A stretch of DNA of 64,000 bases from Patescibacteria group bacterium (GCA_038064195.1 JBBTTO010000002.1:333356-397355), one strand, 5' to 3'; positions 1 through 47,698 are shown, counted from the stretch's first letter. Translations and numbers: made by a program. The notes: generated from the sequence alone by a model not told the origin.

Positions 1-3000
1 GACTTACCCGTCTGCATGAAGCTTTTGAGTCTGAGTCCAAAAAGCTTGATGAGATTGCGGATACGTTGGCACGACTCTTAAAGAGTCTTCGAACGGGAAG
101 TGTTCTTTCAGAGGATGAGTACTACAAGCTCATGGAATATGAAATCCCTGTTTTCTACACCATCAAAACCGGTTCTGAGGCACTTAATGAGCTTATTATT
201 TCCTTAGATCTCTCACAACTGATTGTCGATCTGCGTAAAGAAGCGGAAAAAGCCAGCGGACAACGCTATCTTAAAATCATAAAGCGTCTCAGGCTCATTG
301 AGAATATGCGTAAGGCGACCGTTGATCCGGCAGCTATGATTCTGACAATCTTACCTGTCATCCCGCCTGATCTCCGTCCTATGGTCCAGCTTGCAGGAGG
401 CCGCTTCGCAACCTCAGATTTAAATGATTTGTATCGTCGTGTCATCAATCGTAACAACCGCTTAAAGCATTTAATGTCACTTGGCGCACCGGAGATTATC
501 CTGCGTAATGAAAAGCGCATGTTACAGGAATCAGTTGATGCACTTATTGACGCGTCACAGCGCGGCAGTCAGGCTATTGCTTCTCCGCTTCGTTCGTTAT
601 CAGACATGCTTCGTGGTAAGCAGGGACGTTTCCGTCAGAATTTACTCGGAAAGCGTGTCGATTATTCAGGACGTTCAGTCATCGTTGTTGGGCCTGAGTT
701 GAAGCTCACTCAGTGCGGACTGCCTAAGGAAATGGCACTTGAGATGTTTAAGCCGTTTGTCCTGCGTGAGGTTATCCTGCGGGGCCTTGCTACCAACATC
801 AAATCAGCTAAACGGTATATTGAAAAGCGACCGCCTGAAGTCTTTGATATCTTAGAGGAGATCACTAAGAATCATCCGGTGCTTCTTAACCGTGCTCCAA
901 CACTTCACAAATTAGGTATTCAGGCTTTCTATCCGGTACTTATTGAGGGGTCAGCTATTCAGCTCCATCCTTGTGTCTGTACAGGTTATAATGCCGACTT
1001 TGACGGAGACCAGATGGCGGTCCACATCCCTCTTTCACAAAAAGCTCAGGAAGAGGCTATCGCACTCATGCTGCCAAGTCACAACCTCTTAAAGCCGGCT
1101 GACGGATCTCCTATAACCCTTCCTAACAAGGAGATGGCACTTGGAGTCTACTTCTTAACATCAGTTGATGAGGCACTCATCCGTCCTACTGAAGAGCAAG
1201 TCTATTTTGAGAACGAAACAGCCGCAATCATGGCTTATGACATGGGGAAAATAAAGCTCAAGCAGCCTGTCCAGGTTCGTGTCACCAAGGACGGCAGTCA
1301 TCAGCTGACTGAGACTACAGTCGGACGTATTCGTTTTAATGAACTGCTGCCTAATACATTTGAGTATGTTAATACCTCAATTAATGCAGCCGGGATTAAG
1401 AAGTTAATTACCCAGGCAATGAAGTTGTGTACCCCTGAGGAAGTTACAGTCCTTATTGACAGTATTAAGTCGCTCGGCTTTTACGGAGCAACTATTTCAG
1501 GGCTTTCAGTCTCTGTTTTTGATACTGAGATGATTCCTGAGAAAAACGGCATGATCGGTGAAGCAGAGACGAAAGTGGCCGGAATTGATAGTGAGTACCA
1601 GCGTGGGCTTATCACACTTGAGGAGAAAAAGCGTCTCTCAAATGACGTCTGGCTTAAGACCACAGATGAAATTGCACGCAAGACATGGAATAGCTTTAAA
1701 TCCAATAATCCGATCAAAGTAACCATTGATTCAGGAGGATCACGTGCCGGAGTTGAGCAGATCAAACAACTTTCAGCTATCCGTGGACTTATCGTTGATC
1801 CGCTCGGTAAAATCGTTGAGCTTCCTGTCAAGTCCAACTTCCGTGAAGGTCTCTCAATCTTTGAATATGTCGCTTCAGCCCGCGGATCCCGTAAAGGGTT
1901 GACGGACTCAGCCTTGAAGACTGCCAATGCCGGATATCTGACCCGCCGACTTGTCGATGTCTCGCATGATGTCATCATCATGGAGAAAGATTGCGGTTCG
2001 ACAGAGGGTCTGACTATCAGTGTCACAGATCCTGAGCGTACTGCAGCTTTTGCGGATCGTCTGTACGGTCGTTATCTCTCAGCCAATGCAATGAGTAAGA
2101 CCCGTAAGGTGATCCTGAAAGCGGGCGAGGAGTTGACCGAGGACAATGTTAAGTTGCTCGTAGATAGTGAAGTCACTGAGGTTGAAGTCAGAACACCGCT
2201 TGGTTGTAAGTTAGCGTATGGCATTTGTCAGATGTGTTATGGCTGGGATTTCTCGACCAAGACGACAGTACAATTTGGTGTGCCTGTCGGTGTAGTCGCA
2301 GCCCAAAGTATCGGAGAACCGGGAACTCAGCTGACAATGCGTGTTCGCCATTTCGGAGGAGTTGTTATGAGTGACGTGACGCAGGGTCTGCCACGTGTTG
2401 AGGAACTCTTTGAGATGCGTACTCCGAAGAATTTGGCACCTATCTCAGGTCTTTCAGGAAAAGTTAAGATCGAGACGACAGAGGAAGGACATCGGGTCCA
2501 GATCCGCAACACTCACATCAAGCCTGTGGAAATTCAGGAATACTTCGTACCTTTGGCTGCCACACTCGCAGTTGAAGACGGACAGGATGTCACAGCAGGG
2601 ACAGCTTTAGCTCAAGGCTATTTGGATCCGAAAGAAGTGCTTAAGGTAGGCGGCATTATCCAGGCTCAGAAGTACTTGGTAACTGAAGTGCAAAAAGTAT
2701 ACGAATCTCAAGGTATCGGTATTAACGACAAGCATTTTGAGGTCATTTTGCGCAAGATGTCTGACAAGATCGTGGTTGAGACAGTCGGTGATACCTCACT
2801 TATCCCGGGAGACTTTGTCACTCGAGCAAGATTTGAAGAGATCAATGCTGAAATCCTTTCAGAAGGCGGCGTACCGGCTACCGGTCGACAAGTGATCCTG
2901 GGTATCACCAAAGCTGCCTTGTTCTCAGATTCATGGCTCTCAGCTGCATCATTCCAAGAGACCACCAAAGTCCTGACTGAAGCTGCTTTGGAAGGCCGTG

Positions 3001-3170
3001 AAGACAGACTCATCGGACTGAAAGAAAACGTCATCATCGGTCGCCTGATCCCGGTCGAGGGAAAAGAATTAGCTGTCGCACGTGAGATAGAGCAGGAAGT
3101 AACTGCTGAAGTTGCTGAAGCAGCAGCACCCATCACTGAGTCTGAGCCTACTGTGGAAGCTGCTGCATAA
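1..3170 (+). CDS. rpoC: DNA-directed RNA polymerase subunit beta' (5'-truncated at the window edge; reading frame begins at nt 3)
   Basis: Open frame from nt 3 to the TAA at 3168-3170. The translation carries the catalytic NADFDGDQMAVH motif and conserved beta' C-terminal regions. The ORF-track start at 66 is an internal TTG. Confidence 0.95.
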   Translation, partial: LTRLHEAFESESKKLDEIADTLARLLKSLRTGSVLSEDEYYKLMEYEIPVFYTIKTGSEALNELIISLDLSQLIVDLRKEAEKASGQRYLKIIKRLRLIENMRKATVDPAAMILTILPVIPPDLRPMVQLAGGRFATSDLNDLYRRVINRNNRLKHLMSLGAPEIILRNEKRMLQESVDALIDASQRGSQAIASPLRSLSDMLRGKQGRFRQNLLGKRVDYSGRSVIVVGPELKLTQCGLPKEMALEMFKPFVLREVILRGLATNIKSAKRYIEKRPPEVFDILEEITKNHPVLLNRAPTLHKLGIQAFYPVLIEGSAIQLHPCVCTGYNADFDGDQMAVHIPLSQKAQEEAIALMLPSHNLLKPADGSPITLPNKEMALGVYFLTSVDEALIRPTEEQVYFENETAAIMAYDMGKIKLKQPVQVRVTKDGSHQLTETTVGRIRFNELLPNTFEYVNTSINAAGIKKLITQAMKLCTPEEVTVLIDSIKSLGFYGATISGLSVSVFDTEMIPEKNGMIGEAETKVAGIDSEYQRGLITLEEKKRLSNDVWLKTTDEIARKTWNSFKSNNPIKVTIDSGGSRAGVEQIKQLSAIRGLIVDPLGKIVELPVKSNFREGLSIFEYVASARGSRKGLTDSALKTANAGYLTRRLVDVSHDVIIMEKDCGSTEGLTISVTDPERTAAFADRLYGRYLSANAMSKTRKVILKAGEELTEDNVKLLVDSEVTEVEVRTPLGCKLAYGICQMCYGWDFSTKTTVQFGVPVGVVAAQSIGEPGTQLTMRVRHFGGVVMSDVTQGLPRVEELFEMRTPKNLAPISGLSGKVKIETTEEGHRVQIRNTHIKPVEIQEYFVPLAATLAVEDGQDVTAGTALAQGYLDPKEVLKVGGIIQAQKYLVTEVQKVYESQGIGINDKHFEVILRKMSDKIVVETVGDTSLIPGDFVTRARFEEINAEILSEGGVPATGRQVILGITKAALFSDSWLSAASFQETTKVLTEAALEGREDRLIGLKENVIIGRLIPVEGKELAVAREIEQEVTAEVAEAAAPITESEPTVEAAA

Positions 3171-3207
3171 TCCCGCCCTCTCAGTTTGTCTGTTTGAGCA
3201 GATTACT

Positions 3208-3236
3208 TTCGTTCCGGAGGCTGGATGTGGTATAAT
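3208..3236 (+). promoter_or_regulatory. Sigma-70-type promoter with an extended -10 (TGgTATAAT at 3228-3236; weak -35 TTCGTT) upstream of rpsL
   Basis: TATAAT at 3231-3236 preceded by TGg. The -35 is only 3/6 to consensus. Confidence 0.45.
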
Positions 3237-3277
3237 CTGATTCTAATTAAGAATTTAGAGTTAAGAATTAATAATCT

Positions 3278-3294
3278 ATAAGGAAGTTCCTTAT
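3278..3294. repeat. Perfect 8-bp inverted repeat ATAAGGAA-g-TTCCTTAT in the rpsL leader
   Basis: Read directly. The arms are perfectly complementary with a 1-nt spacer, which has operator-like geometry. Confidence 0.5.
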
Positions 3295-3303
3295 ATAACT
3301 CTC

Positions 3304-3331
3304 AATTTTTAATTGTTAATTTTTAATTGTT
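3304..3331 (+). repeat. Heptamer-periodic AT tract (AATTTTT AATTGTT)x2 ending 3 nt before the rpsL ATG
   Basis: Tandem 14-nt duplication aatttttaattgtt aatttttaattgtt. There is no Shine-Dalgarno between it and the ATG at 3335. Confidence 0.6.
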
Positions 3332-14476: not shown

Positions 14477-14511
14477 GTCAGTAGTCAGTTGTTAGAAGTT
14501 AGTTGTTAGTT
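14477..14511 (+). repeat. Heptanucleotide tandem repeat (GTYAGTW)x5 immediately after the groEL stop
   Basis: gtcagta gtcagtt gttagaa gttagtt gttagtt. Confidence 0.5.
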
Positions 14512-18241: not shown

Positions 18242-21058
18242 ATGCTTCCCTTACTTGGTAAATTTTTCGACAGTAATGATCGTGAGATTACCAACCTCTC
18301 GAGTACTGTTAAAGCTATTAATGACCTCGATTCAAAGATTAAAAAACTGAAGGATACGGATTTTCCTAAACGAACTCAGGAACTTCGTGATCGGGTAGCT
18401 AAGGGTGAGTCACTTGATCTCATCCTCCCCGAAGCATTTGCACTGGTTCGCGAAGCGGCGTCACGAACTGTCGGGCTCAGACATTATGATGTCCAGCTGA
18501 TAGCGGCTACAGTTCTTTCACGCGGAAAGATCGCCGAACAAAAAACAGGAGAGGGAAAGACAATGTCGGCAGTGCCGGCTCTGTATCTCAACTCTCTTAC
18601 AGGGAAGAGTGTCCATTTAGTAACAGTCAATGACTACTTAGCCCGTCGTGACGCCGGTTGGATGGGTCCTATCTTTCACTTCCTCGGACTAAGTGTCGCA
18701 TCAATGATCAGTGAGGCATCATTCATCTATGATCCCTCTTTTACGAAAGAAGGAGAGGTTGATGAGCGGCTTTCTCATCTCAGGCCGATTACCCGTCAGG
18801 AAGCGTATAAAGCGGATGTTGTTTATGGCATTAACTCAGAATTTGGTTTTGACTATCTGCGTGACAATATGGTGCAGGATCCGGAACAACTTGTACAACG
18901 GGATTTCTACTTTGCAATTGTTGATGAGGTGGATTCAGTTCTCATCGATGAGGCTCGTACCCCCCATATCATCTCAGCTCCGGATGAGGCGCCCTCTGCC
19001 AAATATTATGAATACGCTAAACTCGTTGATAAACTCAGTTCAGATACGGATTATAAGATTGATGAAAAGTTACGTACTGCTCACTTAACAGATCACGGTA
19101 TCGGGAAAATCGAGAAGCTGTACGGTCTCTCAAATATTTATGAACAGGATTTTGATACGGTTTACCATATAGAGGCTGCACTTAAAGCCCGAACTCTCTT
19201 TCATAAAGAAAAAGATTACATCGTCAAAGACGGGCAAGTCATACTGGTGGATGAATTTACCGGCAGACTCATGGAAGGACGACGGTTATCTGAAGGGCTC
19301 CACCAGGCAATTGAGGCTAAAGAAGCAGTCCCGATCCAGCGTGAGTCCAAAACCTTAGCCACGGTGTCTCTACAGAACTATTTCCGCATGTATGAAAAGC
19401 TCGCCGGTATGACCGGAACCGCACTTACTGAGGCTGAAGAATTCAACAAAATTTATAAGCTTGACGTTGTTGTCATTCCGACCCACAATCCAATCGTTCG
19501 TGAAGATCTCGCGGATGCAGTCTACAAAACAACTCGCGCTAAATTAACAGCCGTGGTCAATGAAATTGTTGAAGCCCATAAAAAGGGTCAGCCCGTACTG
19601 ATCGGGACGACTGCTATTGATAAAAATGAGATTATTTCAGAACTCTTAAAGCGTCGGGGTGTCAAACACGAAGTCCTCAATGCCAAAAATCATGCCCGTG
19701 AGGCACAAATTATCTCTCAGGCAGGGAGAAAAGGGGCAGTGACTGTCGCGACCAATATGGCCGGACGAGGAGTGGATATCATCTTAGGTGGGGCGGAGTT
19801 GGGTGGTAAAGACAGTAAAAAAGACTGGGAGAAAGCTCACAAAGAGGTTATTGAACTCGGAGGGCTTTATGTTATCGGAACTGAGCGACATGAGTCACGT
19901 CGTATCGACAACCAGCTCAGAGGCCGCTCAGGACGTCAGGGAGATCCGGGGAAGTCACAGTTCTTTGTCGCACTCGATGATGACATCATGCGGCTTTTCG
20001 GTGGTGACCGTATCGCAGGGCTGATGACACGCTTTAATATGCCAGAGGATGTACCTCTTACTCACGGACTGGTCTCAAAAGCTATCGAAAATGCTCAGGT
20101 CAAAGTCGAAGGCTTTAACTTCGATATCAGGAAGCATTTGGTCGAATATGATGATGTGCTTAACAAACAGCGGGAGATTGTGTATTCGTCAAGACGAAAA
20201 GTTGTCGAAGCAGGATATGAGACAAAAGGAGCAAAAGGGACAAAAGAGACAAAGGGAGAAAGCCCTGAGATAGATACCCTTAGGGAGGATATTACTGAGA
20301 AGATTAGAGCTTCAATTGCTGCACTCGTGACAGTGAGCAGTGAAGCAAATTCTTTTGAGGAGATGGAAGATGTAAATGGCAAAATTATTCAGGAATTTGT
20401 GACGATAGTGCCTTTTGATGAACACTCCCAAAAGCACTTAGTTGAGCAGGTACAGCAATACCATACCGCTGAGGAGAAGACTGAGTTCTTGACGAAGATT
20501 GCTGCAGATGTCTATGGTCAACGGGAAAAAGCCATGGGTGAAACAACGATGCGGAAGGTGGAGCGATTTGTCATGTTATCTGTTATAGACAATCTGTGGA
20601 TGGATCATCTCGATGCGATCGATAACCTCCGTCAGGGTATCGGACTGAGGGGCTATGCCCAGAAAGATCCGCTCGTTGAGTACAAAAATGAAGCGTATAA
20701 GATGTTTGAACAGTTGATGTGGACTATTGACGATCAGGTAGTTCATCGCATTTTCAAGATTCAAGTTCAGGAGCAGGTCCAACCAGGCCATGAGGGGCAC
20801 AATCATGGAGCATTCCAAGCCAATGTCAACTTAGATGCGGCCGTCACCAATACTCCGGAAAGTGAAGTCAGCACTGAGGTGCTCGTGCAGAAGAACGCGG
20901 AAAAAAGAAATATCGCAGAACCACGCGGAAATGAGGATCAGCGTAGTTTAGCATCTGGTTCAGCAGAAAGCAGCGCTGACAAGCATAAGCTGGGGCGAAA
21001 CGATCCCTGTTGGTGTGGCTCTGGCAAGAAGTATAAGAAATGTCATTACCCAAATTAG
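18242..21058 (+). CDS. secA: Preprotein translocase ATPase SecA
   Basis: 938 aa. DEAD-like motor domains and the C-terminal zinc-binding CWCGSGKKYKKCH. Confidence 0.97.
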   Translation: MLPLLGKFFDSNDREITNLSSTVKAINDLDSKIKKLKDTDFPKRTQELRDRVAKGESLDLILPEAFALVREAASRTVGLRHYDVQLIAATVLSRGKIAEQKTGEGKTMSAVPALYLNSLTGKSVHLVTVNDYLARRDAGWMGPIFHFLGLSVASMISEASFIYDPSFTKEGEVDERLSHLRPITRQEAYKADVVYGINSEFGFDYLRDNMVQDPEQLVQRDFYFAIVDEVDSVLIDEARTPHIISAPDEAPSAKYYEYAKLVDKLSSDTDYKIDEKLRTAHLTDHGIGKIEKLYGLSNIYEQDFDTVYHIEAALKARTLFHKEKDYIVKDGQVILVDEFTGRLMEGRRLSEGLHQAIEAKEAVPIQRESKTLATVSLQNYFRMYEKLAGMTGTALTEAEEFNKIYKLDVVVIPTHNPIVREDLADAVYKTTRAKLTAVVNEIVEAHKKGQPVLIGTTAIDKNEIISELLKRRGVKHEVLNAKNHAREAQIISQAGRKGAVTVATNMAGRGVDIILGGAELGGKDSKKDWEKAHKEVIELGGLYVIGTERHESRRIDNQLRGRSGRQGDPGKSQFFVALDDDIMRLFGGDRIAGLMTRFNMPEDVPLTHGLVSKAIENAQVKVEGFNFDIRKHLVEYDDVLNKQREIVYSSRRKVVEAGYETKGAKGTKETKGESPEIDTLREDITEKIRASIAALVTVSSEANSFEEMEDVNGKIIQEFVTIVPFDEHSQKHLVEQVQQYHTAEEKTEFLTKIAADVYGQREKAMGETTMRKVERFVMLSVIDNLWMDHLDAIDNLRQGIGLRGYAQKDPLVEYKNEAYKMFEQLMWTIDDQVVHRIFKIQVQEQVQPGHEGHNHGAFQANVNLDAAVTNTPESEVSTEVLVQKNAEKRNIAEPRGNEDQRSLASGSAESSADKHKLGRNDPCWCGSGKKYKKCHYPN

Positions 21059-35667: not shown

Positions 35668-35701
35668 GGTAGCGGGTAGCGGGTAGCGGGTAGCGGGTAG
35701 C
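35668..35701 (+). repeat. Heptanucleotide microsatellite (GGTAGCG)x~5
   Basis: cggtagcgggtagcgggtagcgggtagcgggtagc, lying between the alkA stop and the dehydrogenase start. Confidence 0.85.
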
Positions 35702-40431: not shown

Positions 40432-41439
40432 ATGGATGATATAAAAGATAGATCACAGAAATTGCTCGAAAAAATAGATTTGGGACAAAAAAAGACGCGA
40501 ATCCTTGAGCTGCAAAAGGAAAGTGAAGATCCTGTTTTTTGGCAGGACCATAAGGCAGCAGGCGTGAAGATGAAAGAGCTCTCAACTCTGCAAAAAGAGA
40601 TTGAGGAGCTCGAGTTACTGCAGCTCTGGATAGATGAAGGGGAGATGGAGGAAGCGGGTAAATTACTTAAGAAATTAGAGACCCTCCTTTATTTTACTTC
40701 CCCATATGATGAGGGTAATGCGATTGTGGCAATTCATTCAGGTCAGGGAGGAACTGAGGCGATGGACTGGGCCGAGATGCTTTACCGGATGTATACGAGG
40801 TTTTTTGAGAAAAAAGGCTGGGGGTATGAAATTTTGGATGAAACTCCGGGTGAGGAAGCGGGGATTAAAAGCATTTCTCTGGCTGTTTCCGGCCCTTATG
40901 TGTATGGCCTTTTAAAACACGAAGCAGGGGTGCATCGTTTGGTCCGTCAGTCGCCTTTTAATGCTGATAAGCTGCGTCAGACATCCTTTGCCATGGTTGA
41001 AGTGCTGCCTCAGATAGATCAGGCAGGGGTGATTGAGATAAAAGACGATGAGATCGAATTTGATGCTTTCCGGGCAGGAGGACACGGGGGGCAAAACGTC
41101 AACAAAGTCTCGAGTGCAGTCAGGATCAAGCACATTCCAACCGGTATTGTCGTCACTGCTTCAGTTGAGAGACAGCAAAATCAAAATCGAGAGTTTGCAA
41201 TGAAGCTCCTTAAAGCTAAATTATGGCAACGGCAGGAAGAAGAGCGTCATAAAGAAGAACAGCGTATGAAAGGGGGGTATGTCACTCCCGGTTGGGGCAA
41301 TCAGATCCGCTCTTATGTCCTCCATCCCTATAAAATGGTGAAAGATTTGCGCACTGATGTCGAGACAGGCAATACAGACGCCGTCTTAGACGGTGATTTG
41401 GATCAATTTATCGAAGCGGAGCTAAGACAGTTGTCATGA
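40432..41439 (+). CDS. prfB: Peptide chain release factor 2 (no programmed frameshift)
   Basis: SPF tripeptide (RQSPFNADK), GGQ motif and the RF2 N-terminus in a single frame. No CUU UGA C frameshift site was found. Confidence 0.9.
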   Translation: MDDIKDRSQKLLEKIDLGQKKTRILELQKESEDPVFWQDHKAAGVKMKELSTLQKEIEELELLQLWIDEGEMEEAGKLLKKLETLLYFTSPYDEGNAIVAIHSGQGGTEAMDWAEMLYRMYTRFFEKKGWGYEILDETPGEEAGIKSISLAVSGPYVYGLLKHEAGVHRLVRQSPFNADKLRQTSFAMVEVLPQIDQAGVIEIKDDEIEFDAFRAGGHGGQNVNKVSSAVRIKHIPTGIVVTASVERQQNQNREFAMKLLKAKLWQRQEEERHKEEQRMKGGYVTPGWGNQIRSYVLHPYKMVKDLRTDVETGNTDAVLDGDLDQFIEAELRQLS

Positions 41440-41440
41440 T

Positions 41441-41484
41441 GGGGCAAAAGGGAGGAAGGAGAGAAAAGAGACAAAGGAGGACTG
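41441..41484 (+). repeat. Polypurine tract (GGGGCAAAAGGGAGGAAGGAGAGAAAAGAGACAAAGGAGG) 5' of the four-helix-bundle gene
   Basis: Roughly complementary to the polypyrimidine tract at 41854-41905. Confidence 0.4.
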
Positions 41485-41853
41485 ATGGAGAAGTCGGGAA
41501 AAGGATATCACAAGCTTATTGTTTGGCAGAGAGCTAGGGAGTTGGTCAAAATAGTATACGAGCATACAGATGCTTTCCCGAAGGCTGAAGAGTTTGGTTT
41601 GAAAGGACAAATTCGTCGTGCAAGTGTTTCGGTGGTCCTCAATATAGTAGAAGGCTATAGGAGATCTTCCAGAAAAGATTATATCCATTTTTTAACCATC
41701 GCCAATGGGTCGCTTTCTGAAACAGAAGCAGCTATGGAGCTTTCTGTCGACTTAAAGTATCTTACCGAAGCTAATTACGAGATACTTGAGAAAAAACGGG
41801 GTGAAGTTGCCTATTTATTGTATCAATTAATCAAAAGTTTAAAGGCTAAATAA
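41485..41853 (+). CDS. Four-helix-bundle protein (TIGR02436 family, the '23S rRNA intervening-sequence protein' family)
   Basis: YHKLIVWQRARELVKIVYEHTDAFPKAEEFGLKGQIRRASVSVVLNIVEG is the family signature. Confidence 0.8.
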   Translation: MEKSGKGYHKLIVWQRARELVKIVYEHTDAFPKAEEFGLKGQIRRASVSVVLNIVEGYRRSSRKDYIHFLTIANGSLSETEAAMELSVDLKYLTEANYEILEKKRGEVAYLLYQLIKSLKAK

Positions 41854-41905
41854 ACTCCCTTTGTTACCTTTGTCCCCTTTGCCCCTTTCTTCCCCTCTCT
41901 CGTGG
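41854..41905 (+). repeat. Polypyrimidine tract (CTCCCTTTGTTACCTTTGTCCCCTTTGCCCCTTTCTTCCCCTCTCTC) 3' of the four-helix-bundle gene
   Basis: Contains CCCCTTTGCCCC, the reverse complement of upstream GGGGCAAAGGGG-like sequence, and CTTTCTTCCCCTCTCTC matching GGAGGAAGGAGAGAAAAG. Confidence 0.4.
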
Positions 41906-41987
41906 GGTTGTCAAATGATCACAAATGTGGTTAACTAGATACTGTCTTGGAGCAAGTTCCGAAGGCGCGGGGAAGGTGAGATAAGCG

Positions 41988-42437
41988 ATGGAAGAAAAAA
42001 AAGAAGAATCATCCTCCTTGATGCACGATCTAAAGGAATCATCAACCGGAGAAAATCGTATGAAATTTATCGGAATTTTTATTATTGTCGTACTTCTGGG
42101 TGTAGGTACCGGGTATGGGTTAACAAAGGTGACGGGCTCCGGTCCAACTCAAGGAAGTGTCCCGGGTAGCTCAGCTCCTCAAGGGGCAACTTATGGTACG
42201 TCCAATACTAAGGATTACCCTGATGTGGCCGAGGGAGTACTTCGTAAAGGCGGTATAGAAGACGAAGGAGCTTTCCATTTGGAGCGTCCGGGGGGGGAGA
42301 GCCAGAATGTCTATATGACCTCAAGCAACGTCGATCTCGCGAAATTGGTCGGTAAAAAAATAAAGGTTTGGGGACAGACTCAATCTGCACAGCATGCCGG
42401 ATGGCTCATGGACGTTGGAAAAGTTGAGGTGCTATGA
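41988..42437 (+). CDS. Hypothetical membrane-anchored protein (first gene of the ftsEX operon)
   Basis: TM segment near residue 25. Its stop overlaps the ftsE start (ATGA). Confidence 0.45.
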   Translation: MEEKKEESSSLMHDLKESSTGENRMKFIGIFIIVVLLGVGTGYGLTKVTGSGPTQGSVPGSSAPQGATYGTSNTKDYPDVAEGVLRKGGIEDEGAFHLERPGGESQNVYMTSSNVDLAKLVGKKIKVWGQTQSAQHAGWLMDVGKVEVL

Positions 42438-43270
42438 TCCGACTACTAGAAGTAACAAAGACATACGGGACAGGCACATCTGCTCTGTCTGATATCTCCC
42501 TTTCAATTGACAAAGGGGAGTTTGTTTTTATAGTGGGACCTTCAGGCTCAGGTAAGACGACGCTTCTTCGCCTCTTAATTCGTGATATGACTCCGACAAG
42601 AGGTACTATCACTCTCAACAACGTTGATATCGGAAAGCTCTCAAACAAAAAAGTTCCTCAGCTTCGTAAGCAAATAGGAGTTGTTTTTCAGGATCTTAAA
42701 ATGCTCATGGACAGAACAATTTATGAAAATATTCTGCTTCCCTTGGAGATGGCAGGAATGGATCATAAAGAGGCTGAACAGAAAGTTCATAAGATATTGA
42801 CTCAAGTCGGGATAGAGGAGCATATGGAAAAATTCCCTATTCAACTTTCTGGCGGAGAGCTGCAGCGTGCAGCTATCGCGCGTGCGCTTGTGTTCTCACC
42901 TGAGATCCTCCTTGCTGACGAGCCGACCGGGAATTTAGATAATACGACATCATGGGAGATTGTAAAATTATTGCAGGATATTAATAAATTGGGAACAACA
43001 GTTATCATGGCCACACACAATTTAGAAGTGGTCAACAGTCTGGACAAAAGAGTCGTTGAGCTTGAAAAAGGCAAGATGACACGTGATACTAAGAAAGGTC
43101 CTTCGACAAGCTCAGGACAAGATGTAAAAGAGACTAAACATGTGAAGAAACCTGAAGAGAAGGAAGACAAAAAAGATCTGGAAAAAAAACCGGAAGTTGA
43201 GGAAAAAGATTCTTCGATAAATCTGCCTGCCGGCAGGCAGGACTCAGAACAAGGCAAACATAAACAATGA
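42434..43270 (+). CDS. ftsE: Cell division ATP-binding protein FtsE with a Lys/Glu-rich C-terminal tail
   Basis: Walker A, the LSGGE signature and Walker B. About 60 extra charged C-terminal residues. Confidence 0.9.
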   Translation: MIRLLEVTKTYGTGTSALSDISLSIDKGEFVFIVGPSGSGKTTLLRLLIRDMTPTRGTITLNNVDIGKLSNKKVPQLRKQIGVVFQDLKMLMDRTIYENILLPLEMAGMDHKEAEQKVHKILTQVGIEEHMEKFPIQLSGGELQRAAIARALVFSPEILLADEPTGNLDNTTSWEIVKLLQDINKLGTTVIMATHNLEVVNSLDKRVVELEKGKMTRDTKKGPSTSSGQDVKETKHVKKPEEKEDKKDLEKKPEVEEKDSSINLPAGRQDSEQGKHKQ

Positions 43271-44133
43271 AAACAACTAGTACAGCCTGGAAACACATTC
43301 GTCGCTCGCCGTATCAGGCATTGGCGGCTATCTTGATCATGATGCTGACCTTTCTTGTCGTCTCAATGTTCACGATGGTGATCGTCAGCTCCAGTCAAAT
43401 TATCTCTTATTTTGAAGCATCTCCTAAGGTAACCGCTTTTTTTAAGGAAGATACACAGCAGCCCACAATCGATGCCTTAGCTGACTCACTGAAAGCCACG
43501 GGTAAAGTCTCAAGTATAAAATTCGTCTCAAAAGAGGAAGCATTCAGGCGCTATAGCAACTGGAATAAAGATAATCCGGTCCTTTTGGATCTGGTCAATG
43601 CCGATGTCCTGCCTCCCTCACTTGAGATATCAACCTATAAAATTGAGGATCTGGATTCGATTGCGAAAGTCCTTAAAGATTCGTCCTATGTCTCAGACGT
43701 CGTATTCCTCAAAGACGTCGTCTCAACGCTTATCTCTTGGACTGATGCGATGCGTAAGATCGGTCTCGTACTCGTGATTATCCTTGTTATCGTCTCAATC
43801 TTTGTCATGACAACAATCATCGGCTTTAAGATCTCACAAAAGCGTGAAGAGATTGAGATTATGCGGCTCCTTAGTGCGACCAACTGGTATATCAGATGGC
43901 CATTTTTACTCGAAGGGATGTTTTATGGATTTTTAGGCGCGATGCTCGGCTGGCTGCTTACCTTCGGCCTCACTCTCTATGCGCGGCCATTCCTGCTCTC
44001 ATTTGTACGGGAAATCCCTCTCATGACCCTTTCTCCTTATTTCCTCCTTGCTTTACTCGGTCTGGAGATCGGATTTGCACTAATGCTTGGCGCGATCGCC
44101 AGCTTTTTGGCAGTTTTGCGTTATTTGAAGTAA
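43267..44133 (+). CDS. ftsX: Cell division permease FtsX
   Basis: 4-TM FtsX topology, translationally coupled to ftsE. Confidence 0.85.
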   Translation: MKTTSTAWKHIRRSPYQALAAILIMMLTFLVVSMFTMVIVSSSQIISYFEASPKVTAFFKEDTQQPTIDALADSLKATGKVSSIKFVSKEEAFRRYSNWNKDNPVLLDLVNADVLPPSLEISTYKIEDLDSIAKVLKDSSYVSDVVFLKDVVSTLISWTDAMRKIGLVLVIILVIVSIFVMTTIIGFKISQKREEIEIMRLLSATNWYIRWPFLLEGMFYGFLGAMLGWLLTFGLTLYARPFLLSFVREIPLMTLSPYFLLALLGLEIGFALMLGAIASFLAVLRYLK

Positions 44134-46790: not shown

Positions 46791-47375
46791 ATGGATCAAA
46801 CTCTTGAAAAAGCAATTCAGGTATTAAAAAGTGGGGGGATTGTGATTTTCCCGACTGACACGGCCTTTGGCGTTGGTTGTCGAATTGATGATGAACGCGC
46901 AATTGAAAAGCTTTTTCGAATCAGGCAACGAGCGAGTAATAAGCCAACACCTGTTCTATTCTCGTCAATTGGTCAAGTGAAAGAGTATACTGAGAATTTT
47001 CCGGAGGGTGTTGAAGAGTTGATGGAGAAGTACTGGCCGGGAGCTTTAACAATTGTGCTGCCTGCAAATAAGTCACGGATTCCTAAACTGGTTCGTGGAG
47101 GAGGAGAAAATATCGGCTGTCGAATTCCATCCCATCCTGCAGTTTTGCAAATTATCAAAGAAGTAGGAGTGCCAATCCTGGGGACATCGGCTAATTTCAA
47201 TGGCGAGCCAACTCCTTATACTACCGAGGATCTTGACCCGAAGTTAGTTAATCTCGTTGATTTCGTAGTTCCAGGATTGACGTCTGTACACAAAGAATCA
47301 ACAGTTATAGATTGTACTCAGAAGCCATGGAAGATACTGAGACAAGGCTTTGTTGAATTAATAATTAAGAATTAA
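46791..47375 (+). CDS. tsaC: L-threonylcarbamoyladenylate synthase TsaC/YrdC
   Basis: YrdC fold motifs FPTDTAFGVGC...KPTPVL. Confidence 0.85.
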   Translation: MDQTLEKAIQVLKSGGIVIFPTDTAFGVGCRIDDERAIEKLFRIRQRASNKPTPVLFSSIGQVKEYTENFPEGVEELMEKYWPGALTIVLPANKSRIPKLVRGGGENIGCRIPSHPAVLQIIKEVGVPILGTSANFNGEPTPYTTEDLDPKLVNLVDFVVPGLTSVHKESTVIDCTQKPWKILRQGFVELIIKN

Positions 47376-47377
47376 GA

Positions 47378-47698
47378 ATGAAAAATATTGTTTTATCGAT
47401 AGACACATCACATCACAACAAGTTGATTGTTTCGCTTACCAAAGATGGAGAGAAGAAGGTTTTTGAAGAAGCATTTGATTATCATAAGTCACAGGGAGTT
47501 TTGCCGCTTGTTGAAAAGACACTTAAGAAGGAGGGTTTAGAGTTCTCCGACTTGACTGGGATTGAGGTCAATACCGGCCCAGGTTCTTTTACCGGCCTGC
47601 GCGTCGGAGTCACCATTGCCAACACACTGGCCACTATTTTGCAGATTCCTCTTAACGGGAAAACAGTCGGAGAATTAGCAGCCCCTGTCTATTCATAG
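47378..47698 (+). CDS. tsaB: Minimal TsaB (YeaZ) homologue, 106 aa
   Basis: LSIDTS ... NTGPGSFTGLRVGVTIANTLA matches the TsaB N-terminal half. The C-terminal half is absent. Confidence 0.7.
   Translation: MKNIVLSIDTSHHNKLIVSLTKDGEKKVFEEAFDYHKSQGVLPLVEKTLKKEGLEFSDLTGIEVNTGPGSFTGLRVGVTIANTLATILQIPLNGKTVGELAAPVYS

Follow-up and report, generated by a model that had tools for sequence, protein, structure and literature searches.

A four-helix-bundle gene between mirrored repeat arrays behind prfB: a probable non-rRNA counterpart of ORF-bearing 23S rRNA intervening sequences

What is a gene of the "23S rRNA intervening sequence protein" family doing in a stretch of DNA without ribosomal RNA (rRNA)? 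The question is raised by 64,000 nucleotides from a Patescibacteria group bacterium (GCA_038064195.1 JBBTTO010000002.1:333356-397355; this whole stretch is called the window below), in which a four-helix-bundle (4HB) gene behind prfB is directly preceded by a purine-rich tract and directly followed by a pyrimidine-rich one. Knowledge of intervening sequences (IVSs) in 23S rRNA, located in helices 9, 25 or 45, and of their S23p open reading frames (ORFs) goes back to the early 1990s, and the wide occurrence of genes annotated as "four helix bundle protein" is also known. An initial annotation of the window had proposed that this gene and its two flanks are an IVS-like cassette outside rRNA. The present analysis agrees: the build of the element matches that of IVSs from Azospirillum and Coxiella, and an Rfam search over the window gave no match at gathering score, hence no rRNA, the matches with E<10 in 41300-42050 being at chance level. 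By analogy with these IVSs, the element is probably a small insertion cassette of the RNase III type that is embedded in a host transcript, that is, a non-rRNA counterpart of an ORF-bearing IVS.

The cassette behind prfB

The features of the locus are as follows (L-numbers, here and below, are locus labels).

40432..41439, plus strand: prfB, peptide chain release factor 2 (PF03462 and PF00472), stop codon TGA at 41437-41439
41441..41484, plus strand: upstream arm, purine-rich, about five degenerate 9-nt units (from composition and period 9)
41485..41853, plus strand: 4HB gene of the S23p or "23S rRNA IVS protein" family (PF05635, TIGR02436)
41854..41905, plus strand: downstream arm, pyrimidine-rich 9-nt units (from composition, TRF and fold pairing)
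41905..41945, plus strand: promoter-like motif GGTTGTCAAATG...TAACTAGAT of the hyp149-ftsEX operon, at the right edge of the insertion (match to the L087/L093 motif)
41988-42437, plus strand: hyp149, conserved membrane-anchored protein of 149 amino acids, downstream host gene
42434-43270, plus strand: ftsE, downstream host gene
43267-44133, plus strand: ftsX, downstream host gene

The window belongs to a Patescibacteria (CPR) contig of about 1.08 Mb from Hainich groundwater. Gene order in this region is Nramp, prfB, cassette, hyp149, ftsE, ftsX and a PcsB-like hydrolase. The position between prfB and the ftsEX operon given by the initial annotation is therefore borne out, with hyp149 intervening. 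Comparison with conserved synteny shows that the cassette is an insertion. The comparison set comprised 80 prfB loci from metagenome contigs, with prfB 46-72% identical to that of the window; about 50 of the 80 keep the order prfB-hyp149-ftsE-ftsX, and tblastn and profile searches found a 4HB gene in none of the 80. The two closest empty sites, L087 and L093, carry the promoter-like motif GGTTGCCAAAAG...TTTACTTA 13-16 nt past the prfB stop, while the equivalent motif in the window lies 466 nt past it, directly after the pyrimidine-rich arm. Consequently, approximately 41440-41904 (about 465 bp) is the insertion, and its content is arm, ORF and arm exactly, with no more. Judging from the empty sites, the landing site is the spacer of about 15 nt between the prfB stop and the hyp149-ftsEX promoter. 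As the hairpin is absent from the empty prfB sites, the arms are not a target structure that was present beforehand. The edges of the cassette show a 5-nt TGGGG at 41440-41444 and again at 41902-41906, which lies within G-rich sequence and is weak as a target-site duplication.

The same prfB site also holds a cassette in two closer relatives that were retrieved by way of the 4HB protein, L167 (prfB 98.5% identical at the amino acid level) and L170 (prfB 77% identical). The 4HB protein of L167 is 88% identical to that of the window and its arms are remodelled, with CCTTTGGTC repeated three times in the downstream arm. In L170, the purine-rich and pyrimidine-rich characters are kept with a different sequence (GGATGAGA / TCTCATTCC). 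Other membrane-protein-like ORFs, without a 4HB cassette, are inserted in the prfB-hyp149 spacer of L085 (1041-1913) and L086 (3058-4260); thus, this spacer tolerates insertions.

Alignments further show that gene and arms move together. The relatives nearest to the window's cassette (L005, L007 and L008, 66-71% identity) lie between unrelated housekeeping genes, and when the window is aligned with L005-L009, similarity covers the ORF and both arms and stops at the outer edges of the arms. The arm sequence common to these loci is ...GACAAAAGGGAC...AAGAGACAAAGG upstream and CCTTTGTCTCCTTTGTCCC downstream. Taken with the insertion at prfB, this carriage of the arms to unrelated sites supports the mobile cassette suggested at the outset. 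No further 4HB gene occurs in the window, where the gene is single copy.

The arms themselves are extreme for the window, as the GA-rich and CT-rich flanks described in the initial annotation. Purines make up 91% of the 44 nt ahead of the ATG (41441-41484), where the only 40-mer of the 64 kb that reaches 95% purine is located; the 52-nt tract directly behind the stop codon (41854-41905) is 85% pyrimidine and includes the most pyrimidine-rich 40-mer of the window (0.90, a value reached by 0.014% of windows). The upstream arm is composed of the units GGGGCAAAA GGGAGGAA GGAGAGAAAA GAGACAAA GGAGGACTG, also of the GAGACAAAG type, with GRGRCAAAR as the unit of the lineage. The units of the downstream arm are CCCTTTGTY-like and reverse-complementary to those upstream; TRF reports CCCTTTGTC x3.7 at 41857-41888, and both arms have a period of 9. 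Complementarity between the arms is 70-77% over 26-40 nt in several registers, as had been claimed, although the second pair of segments offered as an example is not a collinear complement and matches only as purine against pyrimidine in one register. A long-range stem around the ORF had likewise been predicted: in both the minimum free energy (MFE) and the centroid folds of 41430-41915 it is the enclosing outermost stem, in which the downstream arm pairs with 41441-41477. The cofold of the arms is -47 kcal/mol and their duplexfold -39.4, compared with -18.5+/-5.7 in duplexfold for random pairs of segments from the window at equal spacing (p 0.0015). The arms of a related cassette cross-pair with those of the window almost equally well.

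Elsewhere in the window, arm units are found only in an in-frame tract of secA (ORF 18242-21058). This period-9, purine-rich tract at 20221-20261, GAGACAAAAGGAGCAAAAGGGACAAAAGAGACAAAGGGAG, encodes ETKGAKGTKETKGE and resembles the upstream arm, with which it has 13 nt in common (AAAGAGACAAAGG); it may be chance low-complexity sequence or a captured arm.

The ORF (41485..41853, plus strand) has 369 nt and encodes 122 amino acids. It matches PF05635 ("23S rRNA-intervening sequence protein") with 122.2 bits (1.3e-35, cut-off 33.8) and TIGR02436 ("four helix bundle protein") with 117.8 bits (2.4e-34), far over the cut-off of 24, in keeping with the type first assigned to it. The AlphaFold model of the monomer has four helices (pLDDT 92.5), and Foldseek matches it to XCC0516 (2GSC; TM 0.86, rmsd 0.8 Å) and BT_0352 (2RLD; TM 0.81). 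For each of these two solved homologues five chains are deposited and, by analogy, the 4HB protein is probably pentameric. Comparison with L167 gives nonsynonymous and synonymous divergences of dN 0.067 and dS 0.79 (dN/dS ~0.085), showing purifying selection on the coding sequence. A Shine-Dalgarno sequence, AGGAGG, is present at 41475-41480, at the inner end of the upstream arm and 4 nt ahead of the ATG. Profile searches recognised no nuclease, recombinase or other catalytic domain in this protein, whose gene is the only ORF of the cassette, and no PADLOC defence-system model was matched.

More distant Foldseek matches (TM ~0.8) are to 8UB7 and 4DWL, structures of Avd, the accessory protein of diversity-generating retroelements (DGRs), and this raises the possibility that the gene is a DGR accessory gene or a DGR remnant. 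Besides the Avd-like fold, there are weak matches to bAvd (PF22296, 30.2 bits), NF033474 (37.5 bits) and PHROG 3206; however, the cut-offs of PF22296 (40) and NF033474 (80) are both missed. The gene is flanked by prfB and hyp149-ftsEX; no reverse transcriptase and no template/variable repeat pair is present, and no other long repeat pairs with the locus. A DGR affiliation is thus barely credible, and identity as Avd was ruled out on the sub-cut-off scores and the neighbours.

Mirrored repeat arrays in the 4HB family

Is this build peculiar to the locus? About 100 relatives were examined overall. They include 80 loci from one-genome-per-species contigs, with 4HB proteins 40-71% identical, from Patescibacteria, Bacteroidota, Ignavibacteriota, Acidobacteriota, Omnitrophota and other phyla; family statistics were computed on 93 homologous 4HB genes. 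These flank statistics show that a mirrored tandem-array architecture is general in the 4HB family. Inverted complementarity of the flanks exceeds the 95th percentile of a shuffled null in 81% of the 93 genes and the 99th percentile in 68%, against 11% and 5%, respectively, for direct similarity of the same flanks, which served as control. Duplexes between a gene's own flanks have a median energy of -29.1 kcal/mol, and those formed with the partner from another cassette -16.2 (p 8e-27). The upstream and downstream flanks are also periodic, with values of 0.65 and 0.68 compared with 0.48 in neighbouring control genes (p 3e-23 and 1e-19). Periods are of 7, mostly in Bacteroidota and Ignavibacteriota, or of 9, in Patescibacteria, and wherever both arms are clearly periodic their period is identical (10/10 cases). 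The locus has a duplex, and similar flanks accompany most other members of the family, so that neither of the two objections foreseen in the initial annotation applies.

Nearly all of the 80 genome-scan loci carry short tandem units ahead of the gene and their reverse complement behind it. The units are specific to each lineage yet mirrored between arms, with 3-6 units per arm; examples are GGTGAAT/ATTCACC, GGACTAG/CTAGTCC, AAAGAGT/ACTCTTT, GAGTCAGA/TCTGACTC and GTATCAAAA/TTTTGATAC. Since the units vary in this way, GA/CT is merely the unit of the present lineage. Copies on cyanobacterial and Gemmatimonadota plasmids were inspected as well, and six of seven have the mirrored build. Cyanobacterial plasmid arms include GGGTGTA x4 with CTACACC x4, TAGGGAG x8 with TCCCTAC x5, and GGGAAAA with TTTTCCC, the last being a purine/pyrimidine pair that resembles that of the window.

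None of the 80 genome-scan relatives is located in rRNA and no Rfam family covers their arms. A position outside rRNA is therefore the norm for the 4HB family, and the view that it is typically found inside 23S rRNA is not supported by this count. Nevertheless, the link to rRNA is direct in one case. On the Azospirillum lipoferum plasmid AZO_p2, a 4HB ORF lies in sense inside large-subunit rRNA (RF02541, 2692.8 bits, 3199 nt against a model of 2925 positions), and this element is a true 23S rRNA IVS, with flanks that we take, from their appearance, to be the helix-45 region. Its 5' arm, CAGAGGA CGGATGA CAGAGGA CGGAGGA CAGAAAG, is 79% purine, its 3' arm, CCGTCCT CTGTCTT CTGTCAT CCGTCTT, is 75% pyrimidine, and their duplex, with 32 contiguous pairs, reaches -66 kcal/mol. 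The Coxiella burnetii IVS (428 nt, in helix 45) contains an S23p ORF preceded by two or three tandem GACAGAT heptamers, depending on the strain, and RNase III cleavage of its stem has been mapped by RACE to the start of the first repeat (PMC4990558). Part for part, and in order, the element in the window matches both of these IVSs, which supports an IVS-like cassette outside rRNA.

Several relatives have settings of their own. The cassette precedes a tRNA gene on the same strand by 60-130 nt in L005, L006, L011, L024, L026 and L034 and, therefore, lies within stable-RNA transcription units other than rRNA. In L173, on a Picosynechococcus plasmid, it is found within a CRISPR-cas operon (cas10 / 4HB / cmr3). 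The Ignavibacteriota contig L056 has a group I intron (RF00028, 85.5 bits) at 2994-3298 on the minus strand, some 120 nt past the end of the 4HB gene. In L175, on a Gemmatirosa plasmid, GGGCAGGA x4 and then its complement form a small hairpin 190-130 nt upstream of the 4HB gene, downstream of which there is a second complementary array, CTCCTGCC x4, so that two alternative pairings are possible. A GGGGG(A) stretch occurs 5-15 nt before the ATG in L033, L040, L044, L050, L052, L054, L055, L067 and L072, which are cassettes from Bacteroidota, Ignavibacteriota and other non-Patescibacteria; to our knowledge, Bacteroidota are generally without Shine-Dalgarno sequences. Finally, the short-read contigs of L003, L004 and L167, which hold this cassette or its nearest relative, stop at the 4HB stop codon or 32-81 nt past it, in or just past the downstream arm, so that arms appear to break assemblies.

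Other observations concern sites that the cassette shares with different elements. At one intergenic site in Chryseobacterium and Epilithonimonas (L069-L084, ~600-1290), the content depends on the species: a 4HB cassette whose arms are of one of three unrelated types, an IS200/RAYT-like ORF between the REP-like palindromes GAGCTCCGTAGGAGC / GCCTCGTAGAGGC, or the palindromes alone. Given these varied contents, the cassette behaves there like a small selfish insertion, one among several.

Gene-less hairpins and single arrays were seen as well, on Nostoc edaphicum pNe_5 (L166, 263749-263865 and 258113-258146) and in L171 (28109-28189). The Nostoc arrays are made of AGGGAGT/ACTCCCT, the heptamer that flanks that plasmid's own 4HB gene, and a second hairpin is built from GGGGAAG / CCTTTCC. 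This one Nostoc plasmid is the only place where a dispersal pattern is clear; in general, arm 14-mers show hardly any enrichment in the remainder of each locus, and arrays of the same unit recur there at just 5 sites in 390 kb, which does not amount to REP-like dispersal. The window also has gene-less arrays. A long hairpin in the rpoC-rpsL spacer (3244-3331; -21.7 kcal/mol, z -4.2), with AATTAAG/AATTGTT-type period-7 arrays around the perfect palindrome TATAAGGAAGTTCCTTATA, is built like the cassette arms. A perfect GGTAGCG x4.9 array (35668-35701) fills the spacer between the genes for an HhH-GPD glycosylase and a 2-hydroxyacid dehydrogenase, and has no inverted partner within the window; other intergenic period-7 arrays are at 14483-14511 and 47355-47379.

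What the arms may do

How would such a cassette be expressed? Neighbourhood statistics show that the cassettes are packed in sense directly behind the upstream gene. For 77 of 90 cassettes, the gene ahead shares the strand of the 4HB gene, against a baseline of 188 of 263 (71%; p 0.002). Median spacings are 47 nt between the upstream stop and the 4HB ATG, and 51 nt between the 4HB stop and the start of the following gene. The upstream arm of the window's cassette starts 1 nt past the prfB stop, and a consensus scan found no promoter-like or terminator-like site in or beside the arms, the gap between the prfB stop and the cassette included. This tight placement and the absence of such sites make read-through from prfB the simplest reading. 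The cassette would thus have no promoter of its own. In the read-through transcript, the 5' purine-rich and 3' pyrimidine-rich arms would zip into an imperfect duplex of some 35-40 bp, in several registers. By analogy with the IVSs of Coxiella, Leptospira and Salmonella, this duplex may be a substrate for RNase III, whose cleavage would cut the cassette RNA from the host transcript, with less harm to the host RNA, and set the fate of the 4HB mRNA.

A number of results weigh against this reading. The pairing of the window's arms surpasses that of composition-matched shuffles by a narrow margin (cofold -36.4+/-4.2, p 0.011; duplexfold p 0.18), which means that at this locus most of the pairing derives from purine/pyrimidine composition. 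The antisense duplex of the window is slightly more stable than the sense one (-43.8 and -39.4), and across the family sense and antisense duplexes do not differ in stability (49 vs 44). Arm mismatches of the G·U type are as frequent as those of the A·C type (152 vs 141, p 0.56), so that there is no RNA signature. Complementarity does not fall when the units of one arm are rearranged at random (mean difference -0.22, p 0.35); thus, what is conserved is the unit and its opposite orientation, not particular base pairs. In at least one relative, L172, within a CRISPR-cas operon of a Pseudanabaena plasmid (cas6 / 4HB / cas4), the arrays (AGCTAAA)n and (AGCCAAA)n are direct and not inverted. RNAalifold on a shallow set of 11 orthologous Chryseobacterium cassettes found an invariant stem, which is therefore uninformative, and a motif scan of the window, about 6% of the genome, found no RNase III gene.

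The role of composition could be taken to mean that the flanks are low-complexity sequence by chance, or a polypurine-polypyrimidine pair prone to triplex or H-DNA and unrelated to the gene. Composition does account for most of the duplex energy when this locus is considered alone. Nevertheless, one ORF of 369 nt is flanked by both the purine and the pyrimidine extreme of the window, homologous arms occur in related cassettes, and mirrored arrays accompany about 80% of the homologues, most without any purine/pyrimidine bias, all of which makes such a coincidence very improbable. As a feature of the family, triplex or H-DNA, an alternative mentioned in the initial annotation, was ruled out because most arms are of mixed composition (e.g., GGTGAAT, GGACTAG, GTATCAAAA).

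Conservation at the level of the unit fits a register-tolerant "zipper" stem and arrays of protein-binding sites, in DNA or RNA, equally well. Each arm might then be an array of 3-6 protein-binding sites, and the two oppositely oriented arrays the ends of a mobile element, with RNA pairing incidental; the binding protein would possibly be the pentameric 4HB protein itself, and transposon subterminal repeats and the REPs around RAYT genes could be compared. We consider this alternative rather unlikely. It would account for the lack of effect of shuffling the units, for the missing G·U bias and strand preference, and for direct arrays such as those of L172, where a stem is impossible; 3-6 units per arm also compare well with the five chains of the solved homologues. 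The insertion at a conserved prfB site, the Chryseobacterium hot spot common to cassettes, an IS200/RAYT-like gene and REP-like palindromes, and the arms-only hairpins of an identical heptamer on the Nostoc plasmid point in the same direction. By contrast, a protein of 122 amino acids without a recognisable nuclease or recombinase domain, the lack of a clear target-site duplication (TGGGG being weak in a G-rich arm) and the rarity of same-unit arrays elsewhere in the loci all speak against it. Orientation bias and tight packing behind upstream genes would be unexpected for a DNA-only element, and IVS stems have been shown experimentally to be cleaved as RNA (PMC4990558). An RNase III-type cassette and a role of the arms in DNA or in protein binding are, in any case, not mutually exclusive.

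A further explanation is a domesticated host gene that has lost its mobility in this lineage and whose arms, as a 5'-3' clamp, stabilise its mRNA or govern translation. Located within the inner stem, the Shine-Dalgarno sequence is partly paired in the MFE fold, purifying selection is strong (dN/dS ~0.085), and the occupation of the same prfB site at 98.5% and 77% prfB identity suggests long vertical inheritance. However, the centroid fold leaves the Shine-Dalgarno sequence unpaired, close homologues are found at unrelated sites in other genomes, and domestication would leave the tandem-repeat build of the arms and their fast remodelling unexplained, so that we regard it as quite improbable.

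A broader and speculative proposal, for which we would claim little confidence, is that the 4HB cassette is a distinct and ancient selfish element found across phyla, whose pentamer recognises its own repeat units; rRNA IVSs would be a subset of it, and some STRR-type arrays and hairpins its gene-less derivatives. If so, about one unit would be bound per subunit, with 3-6 units per arm, in RNA or DNA, this recognition would promote the upkeep or spread of the element, and gene-less heptamer arrays and hairpins would relate to 4HB cassettes as REPs do to RAYTs.

The cassette among known systems

The favoured reading is the transcript-embedded, RNase III-type cassette. The locus is an ordinary member of its class, and the class is the IVS kind in a different host context. 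ORF-bearing IVSs with inverted ends are already published, as are the Coxiella heptamers (PMC4990558). In the literature consulted, in which subscription journals were thinly covered and a prior description is possible, we found nothing on mirrored repeat arrays flanking 4HB genes outside rRNA in several phyla, no account of non-rRNA 4HB copies as operon-embedded insertions, and none of some cyanobacterial heptamer hairpins as apparent gene-less versions. Considering this locus and its roughly 100 relatives, the ORF-bearing IVS is only one placement of a general cassette, whose usual settings are ordinary operons behind a co-oriented gene, the vicinity of tRNA genes and even cas operons. With its many natural settings, its simple build of a gene plus mirrored arrays and a protein that is under selection, the cassette allows a test of whether the arms serve as RNase III sites, as protein-binding sites, or as both. 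Annotators should note that operons are interrupted by these cassettes, at whose arms assemblies tend to break.

Tandem heptamer repeats (STRR, GGGAATC, TAACTGA) have been described in cyanobacteria, Xanthomonas and Beggiatoaceae as intergenic arrays of 2-8 copies with variable copy number (PMC4692102, PMC4679880). The arms of cyanobacterial 4HB cassettes are period-7 arrays of this kind; however, the published repeats are described as lone arrays in direct orientation that mostly precede genes, and no 4HB gene or mirrored partner is connected with them. REPs with their RAYT genes (IS200-like) also combine a small gene with inverted repeats, use the same intergenic hot spot in Chryseobacterium and include gene-less repeat hairpins beside gene-bearing copies. 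They differ in that RAYT is an HUH transposase, while the 4HB protein has no catalytic domain, and in that REPs are single palindromes and not tandem arrays; 4HB arms are, moreover, barely enriched elsewhere in the same loci by 14-mer count. The Avd protein of DGRs (4DWL, 8UB7) has the four-helix-bundle fold (TM ~0.8). It is pentameric and binds both the RNA and the reverse transcriptase of the retroelement, which provides a precedent for RNA binding by this fold. Nevertheless, it is only 12-14% identical, below the family cut-offs, and no reverse transcriptase, template or variable repeat is near the 4HB gene.

The closest likeness is to the ORF-bearing 23S IVSs of Coxiella, Leptospira and Azospirillum, with which the cassette shares the protein family, a size of about 430-470 nt, tandem repeats 5' of the ORF and their complement 3' of it, a sense orientation in the host transcript and an enclosing stem; with the Azospirillum IVS, it also shares a purine-rich 5' arm and a pyrimidine-rich 3' arm. 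The differences lie in the host, which here is an mRNA spacer after prfB and not an rRNA helix, and in the unit, whose period is 9 and not 7. Cleavage is known for the IVSs that RNase III excises, whereas here it is predicted from sequence and analogy. In addition, the ORF of the Coxiella IVS is reported to be decaying and probably untranslated, while that of the window has a good Shine-Dalgarno sequence and shows purifying selection.

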